A stretch of DNA of 64,000 nucleotides from Candidatus Marinacidobacterales bacterium (GTDB taxonomy: Bacteria > Acidobacteriota > Vicinamibacteria > Marinacidobacterales > SMYC01), in the NCBI GenBank assembly GCA_965250115.1, contig CBDFNJ010000002.1, positions 270,966 to 334,965 of the forward strand, written 5' to 3'. Position numbers and translations under genes: made by a program. Position 1 is the stretch's first letter. Every line of letters begins with the position of its first letter. Shown here in pieces: positions 1-64,000 of the stretch. The notes under the pieces were generated by a model. It made no database searches and was not told the origin of the DNA. It saw nothing but the letters and a program-made list of their open reading frames with translations.

Positions 1-318
1 CGATTCACCGAGCTTCCAGCACAAGAGGACTTCGCGGCCCTCCCAAATCGTGGGGAAATCGATGAGACCAGACTCCAAGTCCTTGAGTTCGCAGCCTTCC
101 TGGCAGATCTCCTCGAGCGTCTCCCGAAACTCGGAGAGCGCCTCGATGTAGGCAGGCGCGACGGGTATACCTCCGCGAAGCGTGATCTCCTCGGAGGTTG
201 GGCTGGCGAAATCCCACATTTTGAGCTTCGTATAGACCGCGCGAAGCGATCTGAGCCTCCCGCTCAAAAAGGGAATGAGCTCGTTGGCTTCGTGAACGGT
301 GAAGCAACGTCTCTCCAT
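1..318 (-). CDS. DUF2203 family protein (3' end runs off the window). I re-framed this: the 5..355 ORF in the track is a different frame.
   Basis: My own translation of the reverse complement from the ATG at 318 gives MERRCFTVHEANELIPFLSGRLRSLRAVYTKLKMWDFASP...DFPTIWEGREVLLCWKLGE, open to position 1. The motifs (FTxxEAN..LP, W.GxEVxLCWK) match the DUF2203 family. Confidence 0.5.
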   Translation of the reverse strand, partial: MERRCFTVHEANELIPFLSGRLRSLRAVYTKLKMWDFASPTSEEITLRGGIPVAPAYIEALSEFRETLEEICQEGCELKDLESGLIDFPTIWEGREVLLCWKLGES

Positions 319-392
319 CGCGACTCAGTGTAGCCAAAATCACAGCGCCGAACAAATCGATGTGAAGCCCTGTGCTAGACTACGCTTGATCC

Positions 393-1409
393 GTGCCGGA
401 TGCTACGCCGCCCTCACTGCCGGCGCGGAGGGAGATCACTTTGAGACAGGTCAACCGTTGTCGTGCTTTATCTCCGCGCTGGATCGCAACTTCGCTCTTG
501 GCGCTGTCCCTCACGAGTCCAGCTCCCGCGGGCCTGGCCCAGGACCGCGAACAGGAGGAGCGCTTCCAGTTTCGCGCCACCGTCCAAGCCATCAACTTGA
601 GCGTCGTCGTTACGGACAAGAAAGGGCGGTTCATACCCGATTTGACCGAGGTCGACTTCGAAGTCCTGGAGGACGGAATACCGCAGGAAATCGGCTTTTT
701 CACGGCCGAGGTCACGCCCGTCACGCTGTTACTGCTTCTGGACGCATCGACCAGCGTGCGCCCGAGTGTCGACGGAATCAAGGAAGCCGCCTCGAACTTC
801 GTGGGCAAGTTGTGGGACGGCGATAAAGCGATCGTTGCCGATTTCAACGAGCGTATTCGCTTCAGCTCTCGTTTTTCCGGCGACGTGGATCGTCTGATAC
901 AGACGATCCAGTCTCTCTATCCCTCCGGTTGGACGGCGCTCTATGACGCCGTTCTTCTTTCCCTCGACAAAGTTTCCGAGGCCGAGGGACGCAAAGCGCT
1001 GCTGGTCTTTACCGACGGCGACGACTCGCGCTCGGCCGGGCAGGGAAGCGAGGCAAACTCCAAGCAGGCCATCGAGGGCGCGAAGTTCTCGGAGGTCACC
1101 ATCTATAGCGTCGGGTTCGAGGGCCGTCGCATGGCGGGAGCTAAGGGGGTGAACAAGGGATTCCTGAAGAAACTGTCCGAGGAGACGGGCGGTCGTTCGT
1201 TCTTTCCAGACGGTATCGGGGAGCTGAACAACGACTTCGATGCAATTCAAAACGAGCTCCACAGCCAGTATCGCCTCGCCTATGCCCCGAAGAATCTGGA
1301 ACCGAACGGCGAGTGGCGCGCAATCGACGTCCGAATCAAGAATCGGGACGATCTCGTCGTACGCACGAGAAAAGGGTACTACGCCTACACTCCCGCTCCG
1401 GCGATGTAG
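393..1409 (+). CDS. VWA-domain protein, VWFA-related acidobacterial-type; start codon uncertain, possibly a later in-frame start
   Basis: LLLLLDASTSVRP...ALYDAVLLSLDKV...ALLVFTDGDDSRS is a von Willebrand A MIDAS-type motif. The N-terminus has a hydrophobic signal-like segment. Confidence 0.8.
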   Translation: MPDATPPSLPARREITLRQVNRCRALSPRWIATSLLALSLTSPAPAGLAQDREQEERFQFRATVQAINLSVVVTDKKGRFIPDLTEVDFEVLEDGIPQEIGFFTAEVTPVTLLLLLDASTSVRPSVDGIKEAASNFVGKLWDGDKAIVADFNERIRFSSRFSGDVDRLIQTIQSLYPSGWTALYDAVLLSLDKVSEAEGRKALLVFTDGDDSRSAGQGSEANSKQAIEGAKFSEVTIYSVGFEGRRMAGAKGVNKGFLKKLSEETGGRSFFPDGIGELNNDFDAIQNELHSQYRLAYAPKNLEPNGEWRAIDVRIKNRDDLVVRTRKGYYAYTPAPAM

Positions 1410-1415
1410 ATCCGT

Positions 1416-2570
1416 TCAACGATAGGGTTTTTTCGAGTAGCGTCGGGCGAGCTCGTTGGTCGACTCGTCGACGTCGAGAGTGAGAGCGCGGCGGTAATCC
1501 CACTCTGCTGCCTTCCTCCTGCCGAGGGCGTCGGACGCCATACCCCGGCGCAAGAAAATCCGGGCCTTGATGTGGTCCGGTACCCATGGAGCTCCGAGCG
1601 CGCGGTCGAGCTCCATGCTTGCTCTTGCGAAGTCCTTTGCGAAGAGGTAGCTCTCGGCCAGCTTCAAGCGCAGCATCGAGGTCTCGATACGGTCGTAGTG
1701 GGGCAAACCCTCTGCCTGACTCGCGAGCATCGTCTCGAACACTCGCCGTGCCGCGCCGAAATCTCGCCTCAGCAGATGTACGCTACCGGTCTCGAAGGGC
1801 AGAAGTGGGTTCCTGGGGAATTCGGCTTCGAGCTCCCGGAGCGTGCCGAGAGCGTCTCGATAGCTCTTTTCCCGCTGATACATGACGTTCAAGGACAGTC
1901 GAGCCACCCAACGAGTGCGCCGGCCCTCCTCGACGGCGCGCTTCACGAGTTTCAACCCTTGGGTCTTCGAGCCGCGAATGCCGACGAGAAACCCCGCGAT
2001 GCGCAGCGTCTTCGGGAGAGTGGCCACCGTGTACTCGTAGATCCCGAGAAGGAGGTAAGCGTCCGCGTAGCTGGGATCGAGCTCGAGCAGTTGCAGGTGA
2101 AAGGTCTTGGCCCTCTTTCCAGCTCGATAGGAGCGATAGTAATTGTGTGCGATGACGGCATGGTAGGCGCTCAACAGTCCTTCCGCCGCACCCAGAAAGA
2201 AGAGCGCCTCGAGATGTTTCGGAGTCGCCGCCAAGAGCGCTTCGGACCGCGCGGTCGCCTCCCCGAGGAGTCGAAAGAACTCGCGCTCGAGCTCCGGTTT
2301 CGGCGGCGCTATTCTCTTTCTGGACCAGTAGTTGCCCGTGCGGAACGTGGTTCCCAGCATGCCGCCCCGTCGCGCAAACTCCTCCATCCACAGCGCGCTC
2401 GCTTTGTAGTAGGGGCCCGCGGGCGATTCGGGCGCTCGCCGGTCGAGCTCCGAAAAGATCCTTCGAGCCTCGGCGAACTCCAGATTGTAGAGGTGTGACC
2501 GCCCCTGCTCCTCGAGCGCGGTCGGGTTCACGCTTCCGATCGCCAGGAACAAAACGAGCGCGACGTTCAT
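1416..2570 (-). CDS. Secreted tetratricopeptide-like repeat protein
   Basis: Signal-peptide-like N-terminus MNVALVLFLAIGS. Helical-repeat composition rich in A, L, Y and R; 384 aa. Confidence 0.55.
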   Translation of the reverse strand: MNVALVLFLAIGSVNPTALEEQGRSHLYNLEFAEARRIFSELDRRAPESPAGPYYKASALWMEEFARRGGMLGTTFRTGNYWSRKRIAPPKPELEREFFRLLGEATARSEALLAATPKHLEALFFLGAAEGLLSAYHAVIAHNYYRSYRAGKRAKTFHLQLLELDPSYADAYLLLGIYEYTVATLPKTLRIAGFLVGIRGSKTQGLKLVKRAVEEGRRTRWVARLSLNVMYQREKSYRDALGTLRELEAEFPRNPLLPFETGSVHLLRRDFGAARRVFETMLASQAEGLPHYDRIETSMLRLKLAESYLFAKDFARASMELDRALGAPWVPDHIKARIFLRRGMASDALGRRKAAEWDYRRALTLDVDESTNELARRYSKKPYR

Positions 2571-2621
2571 CTACCCACTTCGACTGTAGCAAACATCGCC
2601 GCATGTTAGAATCATTGCCGC

Positions 2622-3182
2622 ATGGACGAGAAGCTCGAGACGAAGCTCGTCGCGCGGCGCTCGATCTATCGCGGCCGGATCGTCCACCTGGACGTGGACC
2701 GTGTCATCGAGCCCTCGGGTCAGGAAGTCGAGCGCGAGGTCATCCGTCATGGCGGTGCGGCGGTCCTGCTCGCGGTCACGAACGAAGGTCGGGTCGTGCT
2801 CGTTCGACAGTATCGCTACGCATCCGGTGAGCTCATGCTGGAAGTGCCAGCCGGTACCATCGAGCCGGGCGAATCGCCAGATGAGACCGCGAGGCGAGAG
2901 TTGGTCGAAGAGACGGGCTACTACCCCAATCGCCTGGAGAAGCTGACGGAATTCTTTCCCTCCCCCGGTATCTTGACTGAGCTGATGCATCTGTATCTCG
3001 CGACCGATCTCGACGAGCGTGAGGCTTCCCCGGACGACGACGAGAACCTCGAGCTCGTCGAGCTGTCCATCAACGACGCCCTGGCGCTCCAGGTCGGCAA
3101 AGACCTTCGGGACGCGAAGACGATTATCGCCCTCTCCTATCTCCGAACCCTTCCTGTTTTCGCGTCCTCCCGGAAGCCTTGA
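2622..3182 (+). CDS. NUDIX hydrolase (ADP-ribose pyrophosphatase-like)
   Basis: The NUDIX box GEx7REUxEExGU is present in EVPAGTIEPGESPDETARRELVEETGY. Confidence 0.85.
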   Translation: MDEKLETKLVARRSIYRGRIVHLDVDRVIEPSGQEVEREVIRHGGAAVLLAVTNEGRVVLVRQYRYASGELMLEVPAGTIEPGESPDETARRELVEETGYYPNRLEKLTEFFPSPGILTELMHLYLATDLDEREASPDDDENLELVELSINDALALQVGKDLRDAKTIIALSYLRTLPVFASSRKP

Positions 3183-5713
3183 AGAAATCGGTCTTCGCGG
3201 CGCTGGTCGTCGTCGGCCTCGCGCTCTCCCTTCTCCTTCGGTTTGGTGTGCGACTACCCTTGTTCGAGGGCGCCTTCAAGCTCGATAACCCTCGGCTTCT
3301 CGTCTCACTGCCCAGCTTTCTCCTCGTCGTCTTCGCCCTCGTCGCGGCATTCTCCATTGCGCTCCTTCTGTCGAGGGGGGCCAGCCTATGGGAGGCGTGT
3401 CTTTCCTTCGCACCCGCCAGTCTCGCGCTCGCGGTCTTCGTTCCCGGAGTCTTCAGCATCGCTCCCTTCACGGCGTCGTTCTCGGGGCGATTGCTCGATG
3501 TCCTGCTCGTGGCATGCCTCGTCGTGGCCGTGTGGCGGATTCTGGAGAAACGCCCTCTCTCCATTGCGCCAAGCGCTGGACTCGTGGCGATAGCAGCCTT
3601 TGGTCTCTACGTGTTGGTTGGATGGAAAATGGGGCACGACGTCGGCCTGTCCGGAGACGAGCCTCACTACCTTCTTGTCGTGGAGAGCCTTCTGCGCGAC
3701 GGCGATCTCGCCGTCGCCAACAACTACCGTGAGGAGCACTACGCGAGTTTCTACAGTGGCAAGATAGGACCCCACCTCGCGAGGGGAACACCCTATTCGG
3801 TACACGGCATCGGCCTTCCGCTCTTGCTCCTGCCGGGCTACGCACTCTTCGGCTTGACTGGAGTGCTCCTGACCGAAGCGCTGCTCTCGGCGCTCATCCT
3901 CCACGGAATCTTCAGAATCGTGAGGACGAGTCTAAAGAGCGCTGATGCCGGGCTCCTGGCGGTACTGGTCTTCGGCTGCACGGCGCCGGGGCTCTTTCTT
4001 TCTGTGTCGGCCTATCCAGAACTGCCGGCCACGCTCGTCGTCGTCCTCGTTGTCGCACGCCTCGTGAGAGCGGACCCCGAGGTCTCGTGGCGTGTGTTTG
4101 CCTGGGCCGGCCTCGTCGGCTCTCTGCCTTTCTTCCACATGAAGTTCGTCCCGCTCGCCCTGGTGCTCTGGGGCGCGATGGCTCACCGTTGGGGACGGAG
4201 GTGCGCCGTTCTGCTCGGAGCCGGAGTCCTCGTTTCAGCTCTGGCCCTTTTTGGCTTTTTCTACTCGACCTCGGGAAGCATCGATCCGACGGCGTCCTAC
4301 GGCCGCCAGAGGATCTTCTTCGATCGCATTCCGGTCGGTCTCCTCGGGTTGCTCTTCGATCAGGAGTTCGGGCTCTTGATCGCATCCCCGGTGTATCTTC
4401 TCGGACTTTGCGGGCTCGTCGCCCTTTCACGTCGTCACCCGTTTCTCGGGATCGTGACCACGGCTACGCTTGCGGCGGTGTCGCTTCCTGGAGCGGCCCA
4501 TCCACTCTGGTCCGGTGGAAACTCACCGCCGGCCCGGTTTCTGTTTCCGGCGCTTCCCCTGCTCGCGGTCGCCGCCGCGGCTTACGTCGCTACACCCGGT
4601 GCTCGCTTCGGTCTCGGCTCGTGGAGGCGCTCTCTGTTCGCTCTGAGCGTCGCTCTTGCGGGCGCGATGCTCGTCCTGCCTGGACAACCCTTGTATCTGA
4701 ACGCGCGCGATGGGACCGGACGCATTTGGGAAGCACTGTCGAGCTCCTGGGACGTGGCGGCTTATCTGCCTTCCGTCGTCCGAGGTGACCCGCGGTCGCT
4801 CGTGTGGTCGGCGGCGGCGGCGGGTTTCGTCGTTTTCGCCCTCGCCATGGATTGGCTTGGACGTCGATTCGTCGTCCCATCTTTCGTGACCTTCGTGCTC
4901 GCTCTGGCCTGGATACAGGATCTATCGGGAGTTCGGATCGAGCGGAACCTGGAAGGTCGATGGACCTCGTCGTTCCTGCTCGGAGCCGAGCACGCAAAAG
5001 GCTCCCGTTTCCTCGTATTGCCTGAGCGTGAGAGCCTGGGACTCGACGAAGTCCTCGAGCGCGTCACCCTGCCTATCGGGCCGAGGTCCCCCGACGGCGA
5101 CCCGAGTCATTGGTGGAGTCGTCGTTACCGCCTCCCTGCCGGAGAGCTCGAGATTGTCGGCGTATCGCCGGATGGTCTCGCGCTTTGTAACGGAGGCGGC
5201 TGTTTCGCAGAGAGCGAGACCAGATTTTTCTCGAGGGTTGGGTTGGCCCAGTTTCATCTGCGGGCGCGAGCGCTCCTTGGGCCCGTGCGAGTGAGGCTCG
5301 TTCGGCCTCTGCCGACGCTCGCCGAGGCTCTTCAGAGCCTTCGCTCTCCCAGTGGTGCGAGACTCCATGCCCTCGACGACGAAGTCTATCTCGATCCGAG
5401 CGGCTTCTGGGTCAAGGGTGCGTCGCGAGCTCGTTTCGTTCTTGAAACGCCGAATCGATGCGCGAAGGGTTGTGCCCTCCAGTTGGAAGGGGGGGGCATC
5501 GATAACTGGGTTACCGTCACGACCGAGTCGGGAAGCGATCGCCTTCGCCTTCGCGCCCGCGAAAAGAAAATCGTTCCGATCCGCCCAGAAACAGCGCTCA
5601 CCGGGCTCGAGCTCGCGAGCGAAGGGAGCTTCCGTCCGAGCGAGCTCGACAGGAGCTCCTTCGACCACCGAGCGCTCGGAGTGCTTGTGCGCCCTTTTGA
5701 CTTGAGCCGGTAG
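3179..5713 (+). CDS. Large polytopic membrane protein, possibly a GT-C-fold glycosyltransferase-like enzyme
   Basis: 844 aa with at least 12 predicted hydrophobic helices in the N-terminal 550 aa, followed by a soluble C-terminal domain. Loop motif GDEPHYLLVVESLLRDGDLAVANNY. The start overlaps the NUDIX stop (ATGA-type coupling). Confidence 0.55.
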   Translation: MKKSVFAALVVVGLALSLLLRFGVRLPLFEGAFKLDNPRLLVSLPSFLLVVFALVAAFSIALLLSRGASLWEACLSFAPASLALAVFVPGVFSIAPFTASFSGRLLDVLLVACLVVAVWRILEKRPLSIAPSAGLVAIAAFGLYVLVGWKMGHDVGLSGDEPHYLLVVESLLRDGDLAVANNYREEHYASFYSGKIGPHLARGTPYSVHGIGLPLLLLPGYALFGLTGVLLTEALLSALILHGIFRIVRTSLKSADAGLLAVLVFGCTAPGLFLSVSAYPELPATLVVVLVVARLVRADPEVSWRVFAWAGLVGSLPFFHMKFVPLALVLWGAMAHRWGRRCAVLLGAGVLVSALALFGFFYSTSGSIDPTASYGRQRIFFDRIPVGLLGLLFDQEFGLLIASPVYLLGLCGLVALSRRHPFLGIVTTATLAAVSLPGAAHPLWSGGNSPPARFLFPALPLLAVAAAAYVATPGARFGLGSWRRSLFALSVALAGAMLVLPGQPLYLNARDGTGRIWEALSSSWDVAAYLPSVVRGDPRSLVWSAAAAGFVVFALAMDWLGRRFVVPSFVTFVLALAWIQDLSGVRIERNLEGRWTSSFLLGAEHAKGSRFLVLPERESLGLDEVLERVTLPIGPRSPDGDPSHWWSRRYRLPAGELEIVGVSPDGLALCNGGGCFAESETRFFSRVGLAQFHLRARALLGPVRVRLVRPLPTLAEALQSLRSPSGARLHALDDEVYLDPSGFWVKGASRARFVLETPNRCAKGCALQLEGGGIDNWVTVTTESGSDRLRLRAREKKIVPIRPETALTGLELASEGSFRPSELDRSSFDHRALGVLVRPFDLSR

Positions 5714-7205: not shown

Positions 7206-7799
7206 ATGCACATCGGTCGACACATCGTTCAGAAGTTGGTGCTCGAGTTCGGTGAGCCCGAAGTCGAGCGATGGGATGTCGCTCTGACGAAACCCGAGCT
7301 GGACGTGGTGTTGAAACATCGGGGGCTCGGACGCGCCCATGACATTAGCCTGCTCATTTTGGACGGCGATCGCATCGCCGTGATTCGCAAGCCGGGCTAT
7401 CCCGAGGGCGGCTATCGAATTCCGTCCGGAGGTATCCATCCTGAGGAGTCCTTCGTTGACGGCGCGACCCGGGAAGCTCTGGAAGAGACCGGCCTCACGG
7501 TCAGGATCGAGGATTATCTCTTGCAGGTTCACGTGACGTTCAGCTGCGGCGACGAGAGCGCGAAATGGACCACGCACGTCATGTTGGCTCATCCCGTGGC
7601 TGGCCACCTCGAGCCCCTCGATACCGCGGAAATAGAAGGAGCCCGGTGGGTCGACTGGGTCGAGCTCACGGAGCGCCTCAACCCCGTGCTCGTGGGCGCT
7701 GAGGGCGGTGGCCTGAAGTACCGCGCACGGCTCCATCAGAGGCTTCGCGAGCTCGTTCACCAGATTAGCGGATCGAGTCGGGCCCCTTCGTCTTCTTGA
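7206..7799 (+). CDS. NUDIX hydrolase
   Basis: NUDIX box in GGIHPEESFVDGATREALEETGL. The stop overlaps the start of the next gene at 7796. Confidence 0.75.
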   Translation: MHIGRHIVQKLVLEFGEPEVERWDVALTKPELDVVLKHRGLGRAHDISLLILDGDRIAVIRKPGYPEGGYRIPSGGIHPEESFVDGATREALEETGLTVRIEDYLLQVHVTFSCGDESAKWTTHVMLAHPVAGHLEPLDTAEIEGARWVDWVELTERLNPVLVGAEGGGLKYRARLHQRLRELVHQISGSSRAPSSS

Positions 7800-9026
7800 G
7801 GCGGAAAGGCGAGGGGCTCGTCGAGGGCAAGATGTCGCCAGCTTCCGATCTTCGTCGCGCCGAGCGACTTCGTCGTTCCGGCAAGCTCGACAAGGCCATC
7901 GAGCTCGTACGCGGAGCGCTCGCGCAGGACGGCCTGGACTTCGAGGCGCGCCACAAGCTCGCCGAGTTCCTCTTGGAGTCGGGCAACAGGGACGGAGCGA
8001 TCTCGGAATACGTGAAGCTCCAGGAGTTTCTGACAGCCGAGGGCGACCTCCTCGGCGCCATCGCTTGTGGCCTCAAAGTCGTCGAGCTCGATCCCAAGTT
8101 CGACAATCCGCTCGCCTATGTAGCCAAAGTCAAAGTCGAGAGCCTGCGAGAAGAGCAAAAGCGCAAAGCCGCGGAGACCGTTCCCATTCGCCCCATCACG
8201 CCTCTCGACGACATCCCGCTACTGTCTGAACTGACGCCGGAGGAGCTCGCAAGTGTCGCCGGGACCATGCAACGGCACGAGTATCAGGACGGCGACGTCA
8301 TCTTTTCGGAGGGCGACGCGGGCTCCTCGCTCTATTTCGTGAACCGGGGGGCTCCTGGAGGTCAAGGCCGAAAGTAGCAAGCTCAGTGTGGTGAAGCAGG
8401 GTCAGTGCTTCGGCGAGTTCTCTTTCCTGACCGGCCAGCCGAGAACCGCGAGCGTACGCGCGATCGACGCCAGCGAGCTTCTCGAGCTCTCAGCGGCAGG
8501 CATGAGGGGCGCGGTCGAAAACCACCCCCGACTCAGGGACGTCCTCTTTTCGATGTATCGGGAGCGCGCCCTCGTCAACGTCTTGTCGCTCTCGCCTCTT
8601 TTTCAAGTGCTGCCCTCGAAGGATCGCGCGAGACTCGCGCCGCGGTTCAAACTCGTGACGTTAAGGCGGGGCGATGCGGTGTTCCAGGAAGGTGAGCAAG
8701 GTGGTGCCCTCTATCTGATCAAGGACGGTGCCATGGAGGTACGGGCCACCATCGATGGCTACTCCCTGCGTCTCGCGACGCTGACGAAGCATCAGTTCTT
8801 CGGGGAAGTCTCGTTTCTCACCGGTGTCCCGCGCACGGCGACCATCCACGCGCTGGAGGATTCGGAGCTGATGAAAATCGAGGAGGGCGAGCTGCGCGAG
8901 CTCCTCCGCCATCATCCTTACATGAAGGAGGTTCTGTCGCGGTATCACCTTGATCGGGTGACGGCGACGGCGGAGACGCTTAAAGCTTTTATGAAGAGCG
9001 ATCGGGTCGAGGGTATCGTCAGCTGA
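7796..9026 (+). CDS. Helical (TPR-like) N-domain plus two tandem cyclic-nucleotide-binding domains. The reading frame is broken at a G6 run (8346..8351), either a frameshift or a sequencing error. The track splits this gene into 7796..8377 and 8388..9026.
   Basis: The first cNMP domain begins DGDVIFSEGDAGSSLYFVNRG and then frame-shifts. Removing one G restores ...LLEVKAESSKLSVVKQGQCFGEFSFLTGQPRTASVRA. The second cNMP domain is intact (RGDAVFQEGEQGGALYLIKDGAMEV...FGEVSFLTGVPRTATIHA). Confidence 0.7.
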
Positions 9027-9053: not shown

Positions 9054-9284
9054 CTAGAGGTCGTCCTCGTCGACGTCGTCGCCCAGCATATCTTCCTCGA
9101 GGGGCTCGGGAAGCTCGTCCGGGGTGAACGCTTCCACGGCACCCACGTCCATTTCCTGAATCGCGATTGCGGCCGGCTTGCGCGACTTCGTTTGCACTTT
9201 AGGAGCAGCACCCTGCATGAGCTGACGGGCGCGCTGAGCGGCGATATTGACTCTCATGAACATTCCGGCATCGTCTACATCCAA
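9054..9284 (-). CDS. rpoZ: DNA-directed RNA polymerase subunit omega
   Basis: RVNIAAQRARQLMQGA...KPAAIAIQEM matches the RpoZ core (AAxRARQL ... IALxEI). Acidic C-terminal tail. Confidence 0.55.
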   Translation of the reverse strand: MDVDDAGMFMRVNIAAQRARQLMQGAAPKVQTKSRKPAAIAIQEMDVGAVEAFTPDELPEPLEEDMLGDDVDEDDL

Positions 9285-11777: not shown

Positions 11778-12649
11778 TGATTCCGTTTCGGGAGAATAGA
11801 GGCAGTGAGACCACAATACAAGAGGGCCCCTTCGAGACGAGGCGCTCCTTGATCGTTCGCCTTGCCTACGATGTCACCGGCGAGGGCGAGCCTCTCTTGC
11901 TATTGCACGGCCTCGGGGCTCATCGCGGTAGTTGGGACGACGTCCTTGCTCGTCTCGCCACCGAGTACCGAGTCTACCGGGCCGACCTCAAGGGGTTCGG
12001 CAGCTCGCCGAAGCCTCTCGACGAGCGATACGCGCTTCTCGATCAAGTTGCCTGTGTGCGGGAGCTCATCGCCGAGCTCGACGTCGCGAGACTCGCTTTG
12101 ATCGGCCACTCGCTCGGCGGTGCGGTGAGCCTCGTTCTCGCTGCGCAGGAGCCTTCCCTCGTGTCCCGCCTCGTGCTCCTCGGCGCTCCCGCCTATGCCT
12201 CCGACATCCCTCTCGCCCTCCGGCTCGCTCGCCATCGTCCGATGCAGTGGTTGTTGAAAAAGGCCCCAGTGAGTTGGCTTTTGCCTTTCGTTCTCTATCG
12301 CGTCTACAGGAATTGGAGCGTGCTGACGCCGGAGCGTATTCGCTCGTACCGCGAGCCACTGGATTCCGCGGGCGCCCGTCACGCCGTTATCCAGACGGCA
12401 CTGCGGGCCTCTCGAGATGAAGTCGAGAAGCTATCCGAACAGCATAGAAAGGTGACGTCGCCGACCCTTCTCGTCTGGGGTGCTCGAGACAGCATCATTC
12501 CAGTCTCTACCGGGACGCGGCTGGCCGAGGAGCTCCCGAACGCGCGGCTGGTTGCGATCCCGCGCTGCGGACACGTACCGCAAGAGGAGCGGCCTGACGA
12601 CACCGCGGAGGCGATCCTCTCGTTCCTGTCCGGGACTCAGAAGCTGTAA
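11744..12649 (+). CDS. Alpha/beta hydrolase (start uncertain; a TTG near 11848 is possible)
   Basis: LLLLHGLGAHRGSWDDV ... LIGHSLGGAVSL nucleophile elbow (GHSLGG); C-terminal His motif CGHVPQEE. Confidence 0.8.
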   Translation: MRDNKTSRLLPLIPFRENRGSETTIQEGPFETRRSLIVRLAYDVTGEGEPLLLLHGLGAHRGSWDDVLARLATEYRVYRADLKGFGSSPKPLDERYALLDQVACVRELIAELDVARLALIGHSLGGAVSLVLAAQEPSLVSRLVLLGAPAYASDIPLALRLARHRPMQWLLKKAPVSWLLPFVLYRVYRNWSVLTPERIRSYREPLDSAGARHAVIQTALRASRDEVEKLSEQHRKVTSPTLLVWGARDSIIPVSTGTRLAEELPNARLVAIPRCGHVPQEERPDDTAEAILSFLSGTQKL

Positions 12650-14478: not shown

Positions 14479-15687
14479 GTGAAGGAACAACGGTCCGGTC
14501 CGCTGAGCGGTCTGCGGGTTCTCGAGATGGGGCAGCTCCTCGCGGGACCTTTCGCCTCGGCCTTCCTGGCGTGGTTCGGGGCGGAGGTCATCAAAGTAGA
14601 GCCTCCCGGAACTGGCGATCCACTTCGCTACTGGCGGCGCTTGCACGAGGGTACCTCGCTCTGGTGGACCATCATGGGCCGCAACAAGAAGAGCGTCACT
14701 CTGAATCTCAGGACGGCGAAAGGTCAGGACTTGGCTCGGCGTCTCGCGAGCCGCGCCGATGCCGTCATCGAGAATTTCAAGCCTGGAACATTGGAGAAGT
14801 GGGGCCTTGGCTACGAGGAACTGAAGAAGGACAACCCGGGCCTCGTTCTCGTCCGCGTGTCGGGCTGGGGGCAAACGGGTCCAATGAGCGCGAAGCCCGG
14901 ATATGCCTCGGTCGCGGAGGGCGTCGGCGGCATGCGCTACGTCACCGGCTATCCCGAGCAGCCTCCGGTTCGGGCCAACCTTAGCCTGGGGGACACGATT
15001 GCCGGACTCGACGCCGCGCTCGGTCTTCTGACCGCGCTCTACAACCGGGACCACGAGGGGAAGGGACGCGGCCAAGTCGTGGACGTCGCCATCTACGAGG
15101 CGGTGTTCAACATGATGGAGAGCGCGCTCCCCGAATACGATCTGAAAGGCGAGATTCGCGAGCCGCAGGGCTCGAAGTTGAGCGGCATCGTTCCCTCCAA
15201 TACCTACCGCTGCGGCGACGGGCGCCACATCATTATCGGCGGTAACGGTGACAGCATCTTCAAGCGTCTGATGACGGCGGCGGGGCGTGAGGATTTGGCG
15301 AACGACGAGCGACTAGCTCACAACGACGGGCGCGTGCTTCACGAAAAGACGATCGATGACGCGATCGCGGCCTGGACGGCGGCGCAGACTTTCGAGGAGA
15401 CCCTCGTGGCGCTCGAAGCCGCCCAGGTGCCCGCCGGTCCCATCTACAGCATCGAGGACATCGCCAAGGACCCACACTATCAAGCACGCGGCATGTTCGA
15501 GGAAGCGACATTGTCCGACGGGACGAAAGTGAAGCTCCCGACTCTCGCGCCCAAGCTCGACGAAACTCCCGGCGGCACCCGCTGGATCGGACCCAAGCTC
15601 GGCGCACACAACGAGGAGATCTATACGGATCTCTTGGGCCTGAGTCCCGAGGAGCTCGCGGCGCTACGCGATGAAGGGATCGTCTGA
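14479..15687 (+). CDS. CoA transferase family III (CaiB/BaiF/Frc-like)
   Basis: LSGLRVLEMGQLLAGPFASAFLAWFGAEVIKVEPP is the canonical family III N-terminus. Confidence 0.85.
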   Translation: MKEQRSGPLSGLRVLEMGQLLAGPFASAFLAWFGAEVIKVEPPGTGDPLRYWRRLHEGTSLWWTIMGRNKKSVTLNLRTAKGQDLARRLASRADAVIENFKPGTLEKWGLGYEELKKDNPGLVLVRVSGWGQTGPMSAKPGYASVAEGVGGMRYVTGYPEQPPVRANLSLGDTIAGLDAALGLLTALYNRDHEGKGRGQVVDVAIYEAVFNMMESALPEYDLKGEIREPQGSKLSGIVPSNTYRCGDGRHIIIGGNGDSIFKRLMTAAGREDLANDERLAHNDGRVLHEKTIDDAIAAWTAAQTFEETLVALEAAQVPAGPIYSIEDIAKDPHYQARGMFEEATLSDGTKVKLPTLAPKLDETPGGTRWIGPKLGAHNEEIYTDLLGLSPEELAALRDEGIV

Positions 15688-24128: not shown

Positions 24129-24199
24129 GGGGTCAGTCCTGAACAACTTGACTTGGGTAGAAAAGTAACGCCAAAGTCAAGTTGTTCAGGGCTGACCCC
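24129..24199. repeat. Palindromic intergenic element, copy 1 of 3: 26-bp stems with one mismatch and a 19-nt loop
   Basis: GGGGTCAGTCCTGAACAACTTGACTT [gggtagaaaagtaacgcca] AAGTCAAGTTGTTCAGGGCTGACCCC; near-identical copies at 36186 and 56502. Confidence 0.9.
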
Positions 24200-28528: not shown

Positions 28529-28548
28529 CCCCAGGCATCGTCGCCAAT

Positions 28549-39358: not shown

Positions 39359-39386
39359 AAAAAAAGGCCCCGGCAGAAGCCGGGGC
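39359..39386 (-). terminator. Rho-independent terminator downstream of the BON gene
   Basis: On the minus strand: GCCCCGGC-TTCT-GCCGGGGCC hairpin followed by T7. Confidence 0.75.
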
Positions 39387-45509: not shown

Positions 45510-45562
45510 GGGGAACCTCGAATCCGTGAGTACAGGACAATTGTGGACCGAGATCGCGAGTT

Positions 45563-46771: not shown

Positions 46772-47094
46772 TGTTTGTGTGAGCAGCACAGCTACCAGGG
46801 TGTTGACGCAGAGGCGTCCTGCGACATCTTGGAAAAGCAATGGTTTTGTGAGTGCGAGCCCAGTCGCGAGTACTGCACGACTCCGATCTCGTACGACACG
46901 TCAAGCTTAACGAACGACCTAAGAGAGCCGTAGATGCTTGGCGGGCTGGAAGGGACGGGAGAAGTTGAGAGGGAGTCAAGAAACGAAACACGTTCCCGCA
47001 CACTTCCCGCACGATCTGCCCCGATACGGGCCACTACTCAAGAAGCCAGCAGCTCTCTTGACGGCGTAACTCTTTTGGATGGGAAATTTGGAAA

Positions 47095-47171
<77 letters not shown>

Positions 47172-50113: not shown

Positions 50114-51485
50114 GTGAGTTTGCTCTTGACCCCCTGGAGTCTTGCCCTGGTCTTCGCGGCGGGGACGCGCGTCCTCGTGATGCCGTTCGAGAACCTCTCG
50201 GACGATGCGTGCACGATTGGAAGGGAAGTGCCTTCGAGGAGGCAATCTCGTCCCATCTCGAGGCGGCGGGCCATGAGGTCGTGGACGTTCAGACGCGCAA
50301 CCGCCATCTCGTCAATCAAGGTTTCGATCCAGCGCAGCCCGTGACGCGGGCGACCGCCATCTCGTCAATCAAGGTTTCGATCCAGCGCAGCCCGTGACGC
50401 GGGCGACCGCCATCGTGCTCGCGCGAGACCTCCGGGCGGGTCGGCTCGTTGTCGGCAGCTTTCAGTCGAGTGAGGATCGGCTCCAAGCCACGGCGCGCGT
50501 CGTCGATCTGTCGGAAGGGGTAACGATTGGAGTCGTCGAGGACTTCGCGAAACGCGATGAGCTCACGAGCCTCGCCAATCAGATCGCGAAGAACATATTC
50601 CGACTCGAGCGGGACCGGGTGCCCACGGGATTCGACGAGAGCGTCGAGAGGCGCGCGAAGCTCGCGCCGGCCGCTCTCGAGGCGAGCGCCCACGCGCGTC
50701 TGAGCATCGAGCGAGACGAGCAGCGAGAACACCTCGAACAAGCCGTTGCTATCGAGCCTCGTTACCTCGAAGCCCGTGTCATGTTGGGAAGCCTCTTGCT
50801 CGAGGAGGGCAAGGCGAGGGAAGCGATCGACGTGCTCGTTGCAGCAAGAGACGGTGGTGGGAGTGACGCGAAAGCGTACTTCGGTCTCGGTGTCGCCTAC
50901 CTTTCCGTCGGTGAGCCCACGGCAGCTTACGAGATCTTTCAGAATTTGACCGAGCTCGATGACAAAAGAGCCGCAGCCCACAACAATCTCGGCGTGGCCG
51001 CCATGCGGTTGGGCTTGCTGGATGAATCCATCAAGGCCTTCGAGTGCGCCGTCGAGCGCGGCGGCGTTGGAGCGAGCTACTTTTTCAACCTGGGCTTCGC
51101 GTCGTGGCGGGCAGGCAAGGGTGCTCGGGCGCTCGAGCTCTTCGAAAAAGTGGCGGAGGCGCGTCCTTTGGACGGTGAAGCTTACTTCATGCTCGCGGCG
51201 GCGGCGGCGTCCCAGGCGGAGCCCGAAAAAGCAGAAACGATGCACGCCACATCCTTGCTGCTCTCTCCCAACCTGGCCGATGTGGATGCCGCGACGGTCG
51301 AGGGGTGGGAGCGCGTGGTTTTCGCGGAGGAGGAGAGTCGCGATATCGACTCGGTGGTAGCGCTCGAGGAGGACGTCGCCGCTTTGGTGGAGATTCTCGA
51401 TGCTCGCGAGTACCGCGCGACGGGCCGACTCGATGACGCGGTCTTGTTGCTTCAAAAGAGGGTCTACGCGGATTCGTGTGGGTAA
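50114..51485 (+). pseudogene. TolB_N-like domain + TPR-repeat protein, disrupted three ways: a frameshift near 50204..50216, a 53-bp tandem duplication at 50301..50406, and interruption of the 3' end by the ISL3-type element. The C-terminal remainder is at about 53460..53731.
   Basis: Frame 1: signal peptide plus VLVMPFENLSDDA. Frame 2: WKGSAFEEAISSHLEAAGHEVVD. Frame 3: ...IVLARDLRAGRLVVGSFQSSEDRLQATARVVDLSEGVTIG, then the TPR repeats. Downstream of the IS the frame continues ...ELADVLQEAGELDRAATELAIVLWNEP.... Confidence 0.6.
50301..50406. repeat. 53-bp perfect tandem duplication (2 units) inside the TolB_N/TPR gene
   Basis: ccgccatctcgtcaatcaaggtttcgatccagcgcagcccgtgacgcgggcga appears twice; 53 is not a multiple of 3. 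Confidence 0.9.
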
Positions 51486-52018
51486 GTTCTGACGGAAAAA
51501 CAGTGTAACTCATTGTGTGGAAAAGGTATCGAGTACTTCATCAGGTGCTGAAAAGTGGTCCATTTTTAGGATAGGCTAACCGAGTGAAAAATTCCCAGTC
51601 GATCCGCTCGCTGTTTGCGCTGCCAGGTTTCGTGGTGTGCCGGATTGAAGGGTCTATTCGGTGACCGATACGCCCGCGTCATCCAGCTCAAGAGGCGAAA
51701 AAAACAGCTGTGTGCTCTTACTGTGGGCAACGATGCCGGGGGCGCTATGACAAGCAAGTGTGCCGGGTCCGCGACCTGTCGTTGGCAGGCTGGCGGATCT
51801 ATCTGGAATACGAGCGTTGGCGCGTCAACTGTCCTGGGTGCGGCGGTTTGCATGTAGAACACCTGGACTGGCTGGCGAACAACTCGCGCTACACCTAGCG
51901 TTTTGCGACGCATGTGGGCAAGCTGTGCCGGACAAGGCGGTGGCCGAGATGGAACGTCTGACCCTGCCCGGGTTTTGTGGACACCAACCGAGGCGCGACA
52001 ATGCGCCTGGAGGCGTCC

Positions 52019-52315
52019 ATGGGAAAGCGACGACGAAGGAAGTTCACGGGGGAGTTCAAGAAGGAAGCGGTCCGGCTGTTCAAAGCGGGCGAGCGCAGCA
52101 TCGGCCAGGTCGCTAAGGAACTGGACCTGACGGAATCAGCCCTTCGAAACTGGGTGAAACAATACGAGGTTGATCACGGTGAAGGTCCACGCGAGGCTCT
52201 GACGACGGCGGAACGTGATGAGCTCCGTTCGCTGCGACGTCGAGTACGCACGTTGGAGCAAGAGCGAGAAATATTAAAAAAGGCGGCGGCCTTCTTCGCG
52301 AAGGAAAGCGAATGA
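52019..52315 (+). CDS. IS3-family transposase OrfA (HTH plus leucine zipper)
   Basis: MGKRRRRKFTGEFKKEAVRLFKAGERSIGQVAKELDLTESALRNWVKQY... Confidence 0.85.
   Translation: MGKRRRRKFTGEFKKEAVRLFKAGERSIGQVAKELDLTESALRNWVKQYEVDHGEGPREALTTAERDELRSLRRRVRTLEQEREILKKAAAFFAKESE
52272..52278 (+). promoter_or_regulatory. Programmed -1 ribosomal frameshift heptamer A_AAA_AAG joining orfA and orfB
   Basis: tt A AAA AAG gc in the orfA frame. The -1 frame continues KKGGGLLREGKRMRFKFIHAER..., which is OrfB. Confidence 0.7.
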
Positions 52316-53167
52316 GATTCAAGTTCATTCACGCGGAGCGGGCCAACTATCCGGTGCGGGTGATGTGCCGAGTCCTGAGGGTATCGACCAGAGGCTACTA
52401 CGCTCAGATGAAGCGCGCGCCCAGCAGGCGACAGTGTGAGGATGGGAAGCTGAAGCTGCGCATCCAAGCGATCCACGCCCATAGCCGTGGTACCTACGGC
52501 AGGGAGCGTGTACGTCGCCAGCTTGACGGGGAGAACGTCGAGGTGGGCAAGCAGCGAGTGGCACGGCTGATGCGTGAGATGGGCCTGCAGGGCCTGCCCA
52601 GCAAGCGTTTTCGCCGCACGACCGACAGCAAGCACGATCGCCCTATCGCGCCCAACGTGCTCGGCCGGCACTTCGAAGCCGAACGAGCGAACCAGTTCTG
52701 GGTGACGGACATAACCTTCATCCGGACTTGGGAAGGCTGGCTCTACTTGGCGGTCATCCTCGATCTGTTCTCGCGTCGTGTCGTCGGCTGGGCGATGCAG
52801 TCCCACCTGCGCGCAGAGCTTGCTCTCGAGGCGCTTCACATGGCCTTGGGGCGCCATCTGCCTGGAAGTGGCTTGGTGCATCATTCAGACCGTGGTACTC
52901 AATACGCGGCTGCGTCTTACCAGGCCGTGCTCGATGAGCCGCAAGGGTAATTGCTGGGACAACGCCGTGAGCGAAAGCTTCTTCGGTACGCTCAAGACCG
53001 AGCTCGTCAACCGGCGGAGCTGGCCAACCCGGCGGAGCGCCAAAGACGCCGTCGCCAGCTACATCGAAGGCTTCTACAACCCGCATCGACTTCACTCGTC
53101 GCTCGGCTACGTGAGCCCGATGCTGTTCGAGCAATTACACGCTCTTAAATCTGCTGATGCGAGATGA
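52312..53167 (+). pseudogene. IS3-family transposase OrfB (rve DDE core) with an internal frame break near 52927..52950
   Basis: ...HSDRGTQYAAASYQAVLDEPQG* in one frame and CSMSRKGNCWDNAVSESFFGTLKTE... in another. The 13-nt stretch gtgctcgatgagc is read in both frames, consistent with a deletion between short direct repeats. Confidence 0.7.
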
Positions 53168-53765
53168 TCAACCCGTCCACTTTTCCCGGGCAAGGTCACC
53201 TGGACTGGCTGGCGAACAACTCGCGCTACACCTAGCGTTTTGCGACGCATGTGGGCAAGCTGTGCCGGACAAGGCGGTGGCCGAGATGGAACGTCTGCGC
53301 CTCCTAGTTGAAGGGGTCAACAACAAAATCCGTGTGCTGCAACGACGCGCCTACGGCTATCGCGACGAGGAATATCTCAAGCTGAAGATCGTGGCGGCAT
53401 TCCTTCCGCCATTACCCAGAAATGCCGTCTTCAACCCACACGAATCCGCGTAGACCCTCAAAAGAGTCTGTATCGGGATCCGAGCGCGAATGAGCTCAGG
53501 CGAGAGCTTGCGGATGTGCTCCAGGAGGCGGGGGAGCTCGACCGGGCGGCCACCGAGCTTGCCATCGTCTTGTGGAACGAGCCGACGTGTGATGCCCACG
53601 TGGAACTGGCTCAGATCTTCGTCGAGCTGGACGAGCCGGGCAGAGCTCGTGAGCAAATCGAGATGGCGCTCGCGCCCGATCACGGCGGGGCTTTGTTGCT
53701 TAGCGACGCCTTACCGGTCGCGGTGCCGTAGTAGCACTTCCGCCCTTTCCATGTCTTGAGCTAGG

Positions 53766-56501: not shown

Positions 56502-56607
56502 GGGGTCAGTCCTGAACAACTTGACTTCTTTTCGTAAGTGATTGTGAAGTAAAGTGTTGCAAGTGTGTAACTTGCCAGAAGAAGTCAAGTTGTTCAGGAC
56601 TGACCCC
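56502..56607. repeat. Palindromic intergenic element, copy 3 of 3: 29-bp perfect stems with a 48-nt loop
   Basis: GGGGTCAGTCCTGAACAACTTGACTTCTT [48 nt] AAGAAGTCAAGTTGTTCAGGACTGACCCC. Confidence 0.9.
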
Positions 56608-56645
56608 GAATGAGGATTGGGGGCGCGAATGAGGATTGGGGGCGG
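56608..56645. repeat. 19-bp tandem duplication (GAATGAGGATTGGGGGCGc / ...GCGg) spanning the rsmD start
   Basis: Two adjacent copies, each containing an ATG (56610 and 56629). Only the second is in frame with the rsmD body. Confidence 0.85.
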
Positions 56646-59510: not shown

Positions 59511-60612
59511 ATGTTCCATCGGGGGTCCGTAGGTGCTTGTCTGCTCGTTTGCTTCGCCTGGGGAGCTTCCGTTTCGGCGCAAGGGGTCTATTTCCCGGGT
59601 GCCGGAGCTGCGAATCGGTCCATGGGGGGCGTTCGGGAGCAATCGCAGCGACAGCGGCCTCGCCGCCGCGCCCGCCTTCGGGGTCGTGAGCCGACCGGAA
59701 AACTCGAGCTATACCTACGGCCTCGGTATCTACTCGGTGGTCGGTCGTAGCATCGACTTCCCGGGCAGCGAGTTCAACCCGGTCTTGAAGCCTTGGGATC
59801 CGCCCAACTCGTTCGGCTTCGGCCCGGTCTCGTCCCGCCTCTCCGGTCTTCGCATCGACCCGATGATGTCGAAGCAGATCTCGGAGAATCTTGCCGTCGG
59901 TATTGGCGGACAAGTGAGCCAGCTCTCGCTGAGCGTCGACCCCGCTTTCTTCGCGGAGCGCAACGGGAACGGGTTGTTTCCGCCCGCGACGCAGGGCCGG
60001 TCCTACTGGGGCGGTGGCTTTCAAGCCGGTATCTACTTCACGCCCAACGACCTCTGGAACTTCGGTGCATCCTATAAGAGTCCTCAGTGGTTTGAGTCCT
60101 TCGACTACAACTCGAAAGACGAGATCGGCAATGCTCGAAGCCTCTCCATCGAGCTCGAATTTCCCTCTGTGCTCTCGCTCGGTACGGCCTACAAAGGGCT
60201 CGAAGATACGATCGTCGCCTTCGACCTTCGCTACTTCGCCTACGCCAACACGAAGCTCTTCGGGGACGAGCCCGGCGAAGGCGGACTCGGGTGGGGCAAC
60301 GTGTGGGCGATGGCCATCGGTGCTGAGCGCAGCGTGTCAGAAATGATCAAAGTGCAAGGCGGATTCACAATGAACGGGAATCCGATTCCCAACGCCGCGA
60401 CCCTCATAAACATTCAGCTTCCCGCGATCAACAAGTTCGCGATCTCAGGCGGCGTCGCGGTCGCTCTCACCGACGATGTCGATATCGTCGGGAGCACGGT
60501 CTACGGGCTGCGCCACACGAACACCGGATCGATCCTCGAGATCCCGGGTACGACCATCGAGCTCATACAGGACCTCTGGACGTTCAGCCTCGGGTTCAAC
60601 TTCAAACTCTAG
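59511..60612 (+). CDS. FadL/OmpP1/TodX-family outer-membrane transport protein. The reading frame is broken at a G6 run (59624..59629); the track gives 59463..59750 and 59533..60612.
   Basis: GAGGAG ribosome-binding site and ATG at 59511. Signal peptide MFHRGSVGACLLVCFAWGASVSAQ, then GVYFPGAGAANRSMGG and a frame switch to AFGSNRSDSGLAAAPAFG. Ends ...WTFSLGFNFKL, a beta-barrel terminus. Confidence 0.7.
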
Positions 60613-62147: not shown

Positions 62148-62157
62148 GGAGAAGGCC

Positions 62158-63087
62158 ATGGCTAGAAACAAGGTCACGGTCGTCGGCGCCGGCAACGTGG
62201 GTGCGACGGCAGCGCAACGCATCGCCGACGCTGAGCTTGCTGATGTCGTAATGATCGACATCGTCGAAGGCATTCCCCAGGGCAAGGGTCTCGACATGCT
62301 TGAGGCTTGTCCGATCAGCGGCTCGGACGTCCGCATTCAGGGTACGAACGAGTACCGGGACACCGCTGGGTCGGACATCGTCGTGATCACGGCCGGGCTT
62401 CCTCGGAAGTCCGGCATGAGCCGCGACGACCTGCTCCAGAAGAACTACCAGATCGTCAAGAGTGTCACGGAGGAAGTCGCGAAACATTCACCGGATTCGA
62501 TTCTCATCGTGGTTTCGAATCCTCTGGATGCGATGGTCCAAACGTCCTACAAGGTCAGCGGCTTTCCGAAGAGTCGCGTGATGGGAATGGCCGGCGTTCT
62601 GGATTCGGCTCGGATGCGAACCTTCGTCGCGATGGAGCTCGATGTTTCCGTCGACAACGTCCACGCCTTCGTGCTGGGTGGACACGGCGACGACATGGTT
62701 CCGCTGCCGCGCTACTCCACAGTTTCGGGTATTCCGCTGCCCGACTTGCTCTCCCAGGAACGCATCGACGCGATCGTGGATAGAACGCGGAAGGGCGGCG
62801 GCGAGATCGTGAGCCATCTGAAGACAGGCTCCGCCTATTACGCACCCTCAGCCGCGATCGTGGAGATGGTCGACGCGATCCTCAAAGACAAGAAGAAGAT
62901 TCTTCCGGTGGCTGCCTACCTCGAGGGTGAGTACGGTATCAATGGGCTCTACATGGGCGTTCCGGCCAAGCTTGGTGCGAAGGGTGTCGAGGACATCATC
63001 GAGATTGCTCTGACCAACGAGGAGCGGACTGCTCTCCAGAAATCGGCCGGCTCGGTTCAGGAACTCGTGGGCAAGATCGGTGTTTGA
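62158..63087 (+). CDS. mdh: Malate dehydrogenase (LDH-like type)
   Basis: [13 protein letters not shown] ... [16 protein letters not shown] ... GGHGDDMVP. Confidence 0.9.
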
Positions 63088-63099
63088 GGCAGCTCATCT

Positions 63100-64000
63100 A
63101 TGAACGTTCACGAGTATCAAGCCAAGGCCCTCCTTGCCCGCTTTGGCGTGCCCGTGCCACGCGGGGTCAAGGCCGAGAGCCTCGAGGAGGCGGCCACCGC
63201 CGCCGCCGAGCTCGGCTATCCCGTGGTCGTCAAGGCGCAAGTCCATGCGGGTGGCCGCGGCAAGGCGGGGGGCGTCAAGCTGGCCAAGAGCGAATCGGAG
63301 CTCCGGGATGTCGCGGACCAAATCCTGGGCATGACGCTCGTCACGCCGCAGACGGGAGCCGAAGGCAAGCTCGTAAGGAAGCTCCTCGTCGAAGAGGGCG
63401 TCAGTATCGAGAGGGAGCTCTACATCAGCTTCCTCGTCGATCGCGCTATCGGTTGGCCGGTCTGTATCGCGAGCAGCGCCGGCGGGATGGAGATCGAGCA
63501 AGTCGCCGAAGAGACTCCGGAGCAGATCCTGAGGGCCGAGATCGATCCCGCGATCGGTTTGAGGTCCTACCAGGCGCGCGAGCTCGCTTACGGACTCGGA
63601 CTGGAAGGCGAGGTGCACAAGAAGGCGGTCAGGTTCCTGATGGGGCTCTATGCCGCCTTTCGAGGGCTCGATGCCTCTCAAGTCGAGATCAATCCCTGCC
63701 TGATCACGAAGGAGGGTGACGTTCTTGCGCTCGATGCGAAAGTCAATCTCGACGACAACGCGCTGTTTCGCCACAAAGACCTCGTCGAGCTCCGTGATAG
63801 CGACGAGGAATCACCTCTCGAAGTCGAGGCCTCGCATCACGGTCTCAACTACATCAAGCTCGACGGCAGCGTCGGATGTATGGTGAACGGCGCGGGTCTT
63901 GCCATGGCGACGATGGACATCATCAAACTCGCGGGCGGCGCGCCTGCGAACTTTCTCGACGTGGGTGGAGGCGCGAGCCCTGACCAGATCAAGAACGCGT
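63100..64000 (+). CDS. sucC: Succinate-CoA ligase (ADP-forming) beta subunit; 3' end runs off the window. Not in the ORF track because it has no stop within the window.
   Basis: I translated from the ATG at 63100: [22 protein letters not shown]...[23 protein letters not shown]..., which aligns with the E. coli SucC N-terminus. Confidence 0.9.

Follow-up and report, generated by a model that had tools for sequence, protein, structure and literature searches.

Disrupted genes and mobile elements in a 64-kb stretch of a Candidatus Marinacidobacterales genome: gene decay or assembly error?

Does the unusually high load of disrupted genes in a stretch of Candidatus Marinacidobacterales DNA reflect genes in decay or an assembly rich in false indels? 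The stretch, here called the window, comprises 64,000 nucleotides of contig CBDFNJ010000002.1 (assembly GCA_965250115.1, positions 270,966 to 334,965). An earlier note, made from the sequence alone, had listed frame breaks, an internal deletion, two tandem duplications, a gene remnant, a truncated gene and a defective insertion sequence (IS) next to intact core genes, and had favoured the first answer. Every item on its list was present, several of them in corrected form, and comparison with independent assemblies supported its suggestion of real pseudogenisation of sensory and envelope genes together with active IS elements. We conclude, with a probability of roughly 85%, that signalling and envelope genes are undergoing real and ongoing pseudogenisation, accompanied by active mobile elements, in this uncultured Vicinamibacteria population.

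The window has a G + C content of 62%. We ran ~60 stop-to-stop open reading frames (ORFs) against Pfam. The locus was fetched from other public assemblies by exact-protein look-ups, plus one scan of species-representative genomes, and comparisons were made by BLAST or MAFFT. Gene calling by third-position G + C (GC3) or codon usage alone was dropped (antisense shadow ORFs score well at 62% G + C) and replaced by Pfam scans and the gene calls on sister contigs. In the scan of species-representative genomes, the nearest named genomes were metagenome-assembled genomes (MAGs) of Candidatus Marinacidobacterales (Acidobacteriota, Vicinamibacteria). A literature search for the order name Marinacidobacterales found nothing.

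As same-species comparators we used seven independent metagenome assemblies, each from a different sample. Their contigs follow two naming styles and were 99.5–99.8% identical to the window. They included two tight clades: S1 (ERZ25071127 contig_13, ERZ25069191 ctg586607 and ERZ25068966 ctg564925, the last being contig L009; contig L008 is also S1) and S2 (ERZ25067256 contig_13/14, ERZ25072667 and the Logan assembly of ERR13605531, with contigs including L005, L006 and L007). The seventh contig, from ERZ26694833, was noisier. Pairwise distances between the window, S1 and S2 were ~0.2–0.3%. The S1 comparison covers the window apart from 21.5–42.5 kb. Outgroups were a MAG (L010) 95% identical over 17.4–28.5 kb of the window and two further genomes at ~90%.

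Broken genes, intact genes and lesions shared among strains

About 10 of the roughly 62 genes of the window were disrupted, and the S2 strain had ~5 disrupted genes over the same interval. Each affected gene carried a defined lesion that disrupts its frame or removes a domain. Intact full-length orthologues were present in relatives for a sensor histidine kinase, a protein with tetratricopeptide repeats (TPR) and cyclic nucleotide monophosphate (cNMP) binding domains, a GGDEF-PilZ protein, FadL and a second TPR protein, and intact homologues for a pyrroloquinoline quinone (PQQ) dehydrogenase. Lesion by lesion, the comparison of lineages showed existence, nature, polarity and distribution. The broken genes are presumably non-functional.

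The disrupted set was enriched in second-messenger signalling and sensing, with two cNMP-domain proteins, a GGDEF-PilZ cyclase, an MshEN-domain ATPase and a sensor kinase. The MshEN domain is a known receptor for cyclic di-GMP (c-di-GMP). Envelope and transport genes were also broken, namely a FlgO/TolB_N-TPR protein and FadL. Several genes had been hit more than once: the TolB_N/FlgO-TPR gene four to five times, the ATPase gene twice, and the cNMP gene twice in S1.

No housekeeping gene was hit in the window, and all lesions lay in genes judged dispensable or in spacers. The core genes that had been described as intact (recG, prfC, coaBC, coaD, icd, mdh, sucC and the M16 peptidase) indeed matched Pfam domains over their full length and were as long as their counterparts in sister contigs. 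A ROK gene (244 aa) with a partial Pfam match was considered as a truncated gene and rejected; it has a complete C-terminus and equal length in S2 contigs, and was judged intact. The earlier note had called the broken genes accessory. They are non-housekeeping, but the TPR-cNMP and GGDEF-PilZ proteins are conserved across related Acidobacteriota, the named matches being Vicinamibacteria. This conservation of several lost genes means that the word understates the loss. The nonsynonymous to synonymous counts were 42:21 in disrupted genes vs. 89:70 in intact genes, which is in the expected direction and not significant (p = 0.17). Both ratios are high, in keeping with very recent divergence.

The lesions shared with sister strains were single-base insertions in the histidine kinase and PQQ dehydrogenase genes, a 3′ remnant of an Amidohydro_2 gene, an ATPase gene truncated by an IS5 insertion, and a G5-to-G6 change in the TPR-cNMP gene, the last in the window and S1 only. 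All of these were reproduced base for base in independent assemblies.

The gene for a protein with TPR and two cNMP_binding domains (7832–9026, forward strand) was frameshifted by the G5-to-G6 change at 8346–8351. Without one G, it encodes a 397-aa protein with all these domains, which had >100 full-length homologues of 397–400 aa at 100% coverage. G6 was present in the S1 contigs L008 and L009, and a 216-aa gene call was recorded on three contigs in two naming styles. S2, which belongs to the same deposit series, had G5 and an intact 397-aa gene. The S1 gene carried a second, independent hit, the loss of a T at 8145. We had considered this site as a T insertion in the window and rejected it, the T being the ancestral state and its loss having occurred on S1.

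In the sensor histidine kinase gene (26108–27839, forward strand), an additional A at 26267 (TTTT-A-TCG) cut the N-terminal transmembrane segment off from the remainder. This insertion was seen directly in the window and S2; for S1, 520-aa gene calls point to it. The gene was intact in the three outgroup genomes, with stop-to-stop frames of 579–598 codons, and the closest called protein had 587 aa.

The PQQ-dependent sugar dehydrogenase (TrAA12/GSDH-like; 32543–33863, reverse strand) had a one-base insertion within ATTGGCT (~32894–32900), outside any long homopolymer. Its ORF stopped at 341 aa, compared with ~430–450 aa in homologues. The repaired protein of 439 aa aligned end to end with a 447-aa homologue. 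A break in an A5 or G5 run was rejected, as the homologue alignment shifted the site downstream to ATTGGCT. With this, the reported frame breaks of the cNMP, kinase and PQQ dehydrogenase genes have all been located.

S2 had the same state as the window for the PQQ dehydrogenase and for the Amidohydro_2 remnant. The remnant had been recognized as the 3′ end of an amidohydrolase gene at 30157–30226, and the Amidohydro_2 match bears this out (profile positions 236–289 of 289, E = 2.6e-11). It is longer than that, spanning 30048–30225 on the forward strand, with an internal frameshift near 30155. The remnant lies in a 4-kb block with an amidohydrolase, a DUF6786 and an aldo-keto reductase gene, between 43-bp direct repeats of 84% identity (28507–28549 and 32502–32544). 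The 43-bp repeat is the 3′ end of a response-regulator gene. In the three outgroup genomes the block was absent, and the regulator gene continued directly into the sequence after the second repeat.

An ATPase gene with cNMP, MshEN, T2SSE and PDZ domains (42709–44488, reverse strand) was truncated at its 5′ end, within the cNMP domain, by an IS5-family element in all lineages, as seen in S1 and S2. The truncated ATPase gene of the earlier list is thereby accounted for. The element (1087 bp, 44489–45575, reverse strand) occupied the same site in all lineages. It encoded a 321-aa transposase with DDE_Tnp_1_5 and DDE_Tnp_1 domains, and had perfect 18-bp inverted repeats TGCCTTGGTGCACAACTC at 44489–44506 and 45558–45575. 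The ATPase remnant begins at position 30 of the 89 positions of the cNMP profile, exactly at the IS5 inverted repeat. A further 80 bp of the gene were lost in the window only, abutting the IS5 end (44488). With these 80 bp gone, the truncated ATPase ORF (612 aa) shares a frame with an ATG overlapping the stop codon of the transposase (ATGA, 44544–44547). Because of this overlap, the ATPase remnant could be translated by coupling to the transposase.

Adjacent to the IS5 element is a second IS (45576–46925, forward strand), with a 402-aa rve/rve_3 transposase, common to the window, S1 and S2. A search past this IS pair, at 46760–47100, did not recover the 5′ half of the ATPase gene. The synteny of S2 and ERZ26694833 with the window ended at the right end of the rve-type IS (~46918–46930; L005 1–3107, L092 1–1540, L093 1–1333). 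Past the break, the coaBC side was on another contig or beside an ISAZ013-type transposase. This arrangement suggests an IS-mediated rearrangement between strains.

Lesions private to single lineages

The window-only lesions were all structural, except for one single-base deletion (50209). In the GGDEF-PilZ gene (48510–49476, reverse strand), 265 bp were deleted between TAGCGACG repeats, of which one copy survived at 49040–49047. The internal deletion was thus found as reported, at a size smaller than the ~300 bp first given. It removed GGDEF profile positions ~29–119 and left positions 1–28 and 120–161 of 161. The protein has 406 aa in S1, S2 and the outgroup.

The gene of a FadL/Toluene_X outer-membrane transporter (59511–60612, forward strand) was frameshifted by a 148-bp deletion between GGGGGCG repeats, with its junction at 59625–59635. 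The frameshift itself had been noticed before, as a break in a G6 run; it is not a one-base event, and the G6 is the deletion junction. Profile positions 91–375 of 421 were left, and the sister proteins had 416 aa.

A third deletion, of 714 bp and in frame, had its junction at 34529/34530 with a GAC microhomology. It fused a 99-aa and a 269-aa hypothetical gene, separate in S2, into a 190-aa ORF (34338–34910, forward strand). The earlier note listed neither this event nor the 80-bp deletion beside the IS5 end (44488), and it also missed the loss of 6 bp at 53674 and the ISL3 derivative in which the IS3 element sits.

The TolB_N/FlgO-TPR lipoprotein-like gene (50120–53737, forward strand) encoded 519–521 aa in all sisters. 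The frame break reported for it was present in the window, not as a single hit but as one of four or five, all window-only: a lost C at 50209, a 53-bp tandem duplication, an element insertion at 51458–53459 and the 6-bp deletion at 53674, between GCTCG repeats. Tandem Repeats Finder (TRF) recovered both tandem duplications of the earlier list with 100% identical copies. The 53-bp duplication (copies at 50300–50405, TRF span 50300–50414) was bounded by an ACCGCCAYC near-repeat.

The inserted element (2002 bp) is a non-autonomous ISL3 derivative with 26-bp perfect inverted repeats and an 8–9-bp target duplication. It lacked a complete transposase, encoding a Zn_ribbon_ISL3 fragment and the last 28 profile positions of DDE_Tnp_ISL3, and its copy in the TPR gene was the only one in the window. 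S1 carried a 666-bp copy in the spacer between rpoZ and the cNMP gene (L008/L009 12533–13193, window site 8985–8993), a site that was empty in the window and S2. As the sites differ between the window and S1, the element has moved recently.

Nested in the ISL3 derivative was an IS3-family element (1231 bp, 51966–53196, forward strand), of which another Marinacidobacterales genome carries a 92%-identical copy. Its orfA (51977–52315, HTH_Tnp_1) overlapped orfB, which starts near 52222 (HTH_21 and rve, with rve_3/rve_2 in a shifted frame), over 52222–52315, with an A6 run (52276–52281) inside the overlap. Relative to the 92%-identical copy, orfB lacked 23 bp at 52927, lost between 12-bp repeats GTGCTCGATGAG; the resulting frameshift is the one noticed in orfB earlier. 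On either side of the IS3 element, at 51860–51965 and 53197–53302, lay copies of a 106-bp segment of the host element, as direct repeats of 98% identity. This segment was present once in the 666-bp copy of S1. At 106 bp it far exceeds a target duplication of the IS3 family.

The second tandem duplication, of 19 bp (56607–56644), was also window-only and lay in the intergenic recG-rsmD spacer. We found no repeat bounding it. It adjoins the third of three near-perfect hairpin repeats in intergenic DNA (24129–24199, 36186–36256 and 56502–56607), with ends GGGGTCAGTCCTGA...TCAGGACTGACCCC. The copy at 36186–36256 had a 30-bp stem (−65.8 kcal/mol, z = −10.6). The end motif had seven matches vs. 0.5 expected and no Rfam family match; the sole match of the Rfam scan of the window was a tRNA. 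These hairpins are probably repetitive extragenic palindromic (REP)-like or miniature inverted-repeat transposable element (MITE)-like elements, or terminators.

Sister strains were also broken where the window was intact. The Trans_reg_C (winged-helix) membrane regulator (37192–38553, reverse strand; 453 aa, intact in the window) was disrupted in S2 (L005, L006 and L007) by a 19-bp deletion between GAAACGGTA repeats at window position 38242, which breaks IRTVSRHGYRF of the winged-helix motif. Reading this difference as a window duplication was rejected on translation, the window encoding the intact motif and S2 lacking part of it. The S1 contig L009 (ERZ25068966 ctg564925) had private indels at 9194–9254 and 14595–14641 (window 12263–12289 and 7543–7585), which split an alpha/beta hydrolase gene and altered a NUDIX gene, through either a strain lesion or an assembly error. 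The decay is population-wide. It runs in both directions, because S1 (loss of T at 8145, MITE insertion, hydrolase broken on one contig) and S2 (19-bp deletion) carry lesions of their own.

Two further genes of the window were compared. A glycine-rich secreted protein (24737–25333) showed in-frame repeat-length changes in a GGC-rich tract (25094–25154) relative to S2 and the outgroup. An ORF of 844 aa (3179–5713) had no Pfam match, was intact and of equal length in S1 and S2, and was situated in a region of strong negative AT skew (−0.26).

Relaxed selection, raised mutation or assembly error

Indels that arise as assembly artefacts would be concentrated in homopolymers and blind to the importance of the gene. 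Those of the window were neither. Between the window and S2, a single indel was found in 19,026 bp, the cNMP G6. The window has 26 homopolymer runs of at least 6, and only the G6 at 8346 broke a gene; the other 25 were in frame or agreed with the sisters. Only one run differed in length with no third assembly to corroborate it, A7 at 39359–39365 vs. A8 in three S2 assemblies. This run is intergenic and lies upstream of a 261-aa hypothetical gene; the only other homopolymer-length difference found was the G5/G6 at 8346.

The homopolymer error that had been considered for two G6 breaks fits neither of them, since one is the FadL deletion junction and the other recurs in S1, with S2 having G5. 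The insertions in the kinase and PQQ dehydrogenase genes were not homopolymer extensions. The window-only lesions of 6–2002 bp had repeat-bounded junctions, or transposon termini and target duplications. Structural changes of this size are unlike the single-base errors of a read consensus. All eight window-only events within 46.9–64 kb fell into three dispensable genes or spacer. Such DNA makes up ~1/3 of this interval by a rough tally, giving ~1e-4 if the events were random, with the dispensable set having been chosen after the data were seen.

Our preferred reading has two layers. The older lesions would be those fixed or common in the species: the two single-base frameshifts (kinase and PQQ dehydrogenase), the Amidohydro_2 remnant, the IS5-cut ATPase gene and the cNMP G5-to-G6 change. 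On the window branch, recent lesions would stem from replication slippage, that is, microhomology-mediated recombination between 3–12-bp direct repeats. Its likely products are the deletions of 6, 23, 148, 265 and 714 bp and the 19-bp and 53-bp tandem duplications with their perfect copies. Transposition on the same branch would account for the ISL3-derived element carrying IS3 and for the 80-bp deletion abutting the IS5 end. Purifying selection would clear such events from housekeeping genes, and they would persist only in unneeded genes (second-messenger signalling, sensing, envelope, transport) and in spacers. We infer relaxed selection as the cause, through a change of niche or lifestyle or through a population bottleneck. 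Local mutagenesis is a further candidate cause.

Several points weigh against this reading. The window-only lesions are known from a single assembly consensus. The two window-only single-base differences, the lost C at 50209 and A7/A8 at 39359, are likewise read from the window's own assembly. The polarity of the 714-bp event comes from gene logic only, and the gap in the S1 comparison noted above counts here as well. From their sequences, the truncated kinase (520 aa, with an internal GTG start) and the truncated ATPase could still be expressed. Finally, the excess and clustering of window-only events may not be fully explained by relaxed selection alone.

This last point can be put in numbers. 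In a three-way comparison of the window, S1 and S2 over 46.9–64 kb (15,043 bp), the window had 19 private single-nucleotide polymorphisms (SNPs) and eight structural events, S1 had 15 and none, and S2 had 48 and ~1. Eight events per 19 SNPs in the window vs. one per 63 in S1 and S2 together gave a Fisher p of 1.9e-4. Nine of the ten window-only events fell within 44.4–59.7 kb, 15 of 62 kb, beside four mobile elements (binomial p = 2.5e-5). The excess of structural mutations on the window lineage at 44–60 kb is significant; relaxed selection accounts for the persistence of such events, though perhaps not for their rate.

With the lesions taken as real, an elevated mutational process on the window branch, in addition to relaxed selection, is a possible, though unlikely, account of the excess. 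The process might be error-prone or microhomology-mediated repair of breaks that IS elements induced in 44–60 kb, or a lineage-wide defect in suppressing short-repeat slippage. Besides the two tests, it has on its side that one deletion meets the IS end exactly, that repeats of 5–12 bp were present at almost all junctions, and that a neutral spacer gained the 19-bp duplication too. The counts are small, however, and ascertainment biases them, as each pseudogene guarantees at least one event. Essential genes were avoided, so selection clearly shapes what is seen, and S2 shows the same slippage signature in its 19-bp deletion. More speculative, and in our view doubtful, is a recent burst of slippage-type mutation and transposition in a ~15-kb neighbourhood near the IS elements (8–9 events vs. 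~19 substitutions). It would have come from local IS-triggered break repair or a lineage-specific loss of slippage suppression, and would be dismantling a cNMP/c-di-GMP signalling and envelope module otherwise conserved across Vicinamibacteria, at an early stage of niche restriction.

Some of the broken genes might instead be functional variants or switches, with G5/G6 as a phase-variable ON/OFF tract, and the IS-fused ATPase and the N-truncated kinase as neofunctional proteins. G5 (S2, intact) and G6 (window, S1) do coexist in one species, the 80-bp deletion aligns the ATPase ORF with the ATG at the transposase stop, and the 714-bp deletion is in frame. A run of five or six G is nevertheless short for a contingency tract, the gene has been inactivated a second time, independently, in S1, the first transmembrane segment of the kinase is lost, and the GGDEF, FadL and TPR lesions remove conserved cores. 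We regard this reading as quite improbable.

It is barely credible that a noisy long-read (e.g., nanopore-only) assembly introduced most lesions as consensus errors: the cNMP break is a +1 in a G run, the A7/A8 run varies between assemblies, and scattered 1-bp indels break icd, sucC and other genes in short, apparently low-coverage sister contigs (L004/L093, L006), so that such errors do exist in this data family, but a rate of one indel in 19 kb against S2, the agreement of 25 of the 26 runs, the recurrence of G6 in three S1 contigs of two naming styles with G5 in S2, the kind of junctions and insertions described above, and the sparing of the window's housekeeping genes all argue against it.

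With real gene decay as the preferred reading, the broken genes should be annotated as pseudogenes and not "fixed" as sequencing errors, and frameshift counts in long-read metagenome genomes are not necessarily artefacts. The set of dead signalling and envelope genes already varies between strains only 0.2–0.3% apart, and mobile elements have moved recently. Patterns of this kind are typical where selection has recently been relaxed, so these strains provide a natural time series of how genes begin to decay.

Comparison with known systems

Accumulation of pseudogenes and proliferation of IS elements under recently relaxed selection are known from Mycobacterium leprae, Shigella, Burkholderia mallei and Sodalis glossinidius. 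The window resembles these in its many disrupted non-housekeeping genes beside intact core genes, its strain-specific IS insertions, its IS-adjacent deletion and IS-linked synteny breaks, and its genes with multiple hits. It differs in belonging to an uncultured Vicinamibacteria with a multi-megabase genome, known here from 64 kb alone, and in having lesions that are polymorphic among strains 0.2–0.3% apart, pointing to a very recent process.

Replication slippage or microhomology-mediated events can delete or tandemly duplicate DNA between short direct repeats independently of RecA. The 6–265-bp deletions with 5–12-bp direct repeats, and the 53-bp duplication with its near-repeat, have this signature. 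Such events are unusually dense on one branch here, with eight per 19 SNPs in 15 kb.

The mobile elements fit their families. The IS5 element has a DDE_Tnp_1 transposase and 18-bp inverted repeats. The IS3 element has an HTH_Tnp_1 orfA overlapping an HTH_21/rve orfB with an A6 run, in a copy made defective by the 23-bp deletion and flanked by the 106-bp direct repeat. The ISL3 derivative has a Zn_ribbon_ISL3 fragment, a DDE_Tnp_ISL3 tail, 26-bp inverted repeats and an 8–9-bp target duplication.

The window shares a single +1 in a G run with the frameshift artefacts of long-read assemblies, and scattered 1-bp indels occur in some of the short sister contigs. The window's lesions differ from such artefacts in being mostly structural, bounded by repeats or transposon ends, and absent from core genes, with the shared ones reproduced independently. 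Together, these comparisons reveal no new kind of system: IS activity with pseudogene accumulation and short-repeat slippage are both familiar. The novelty lies in the instance: an uncultured species of Vicinamibacteria whose lesions are polymorphic at strain level, with a branch-specific excess of structural events.

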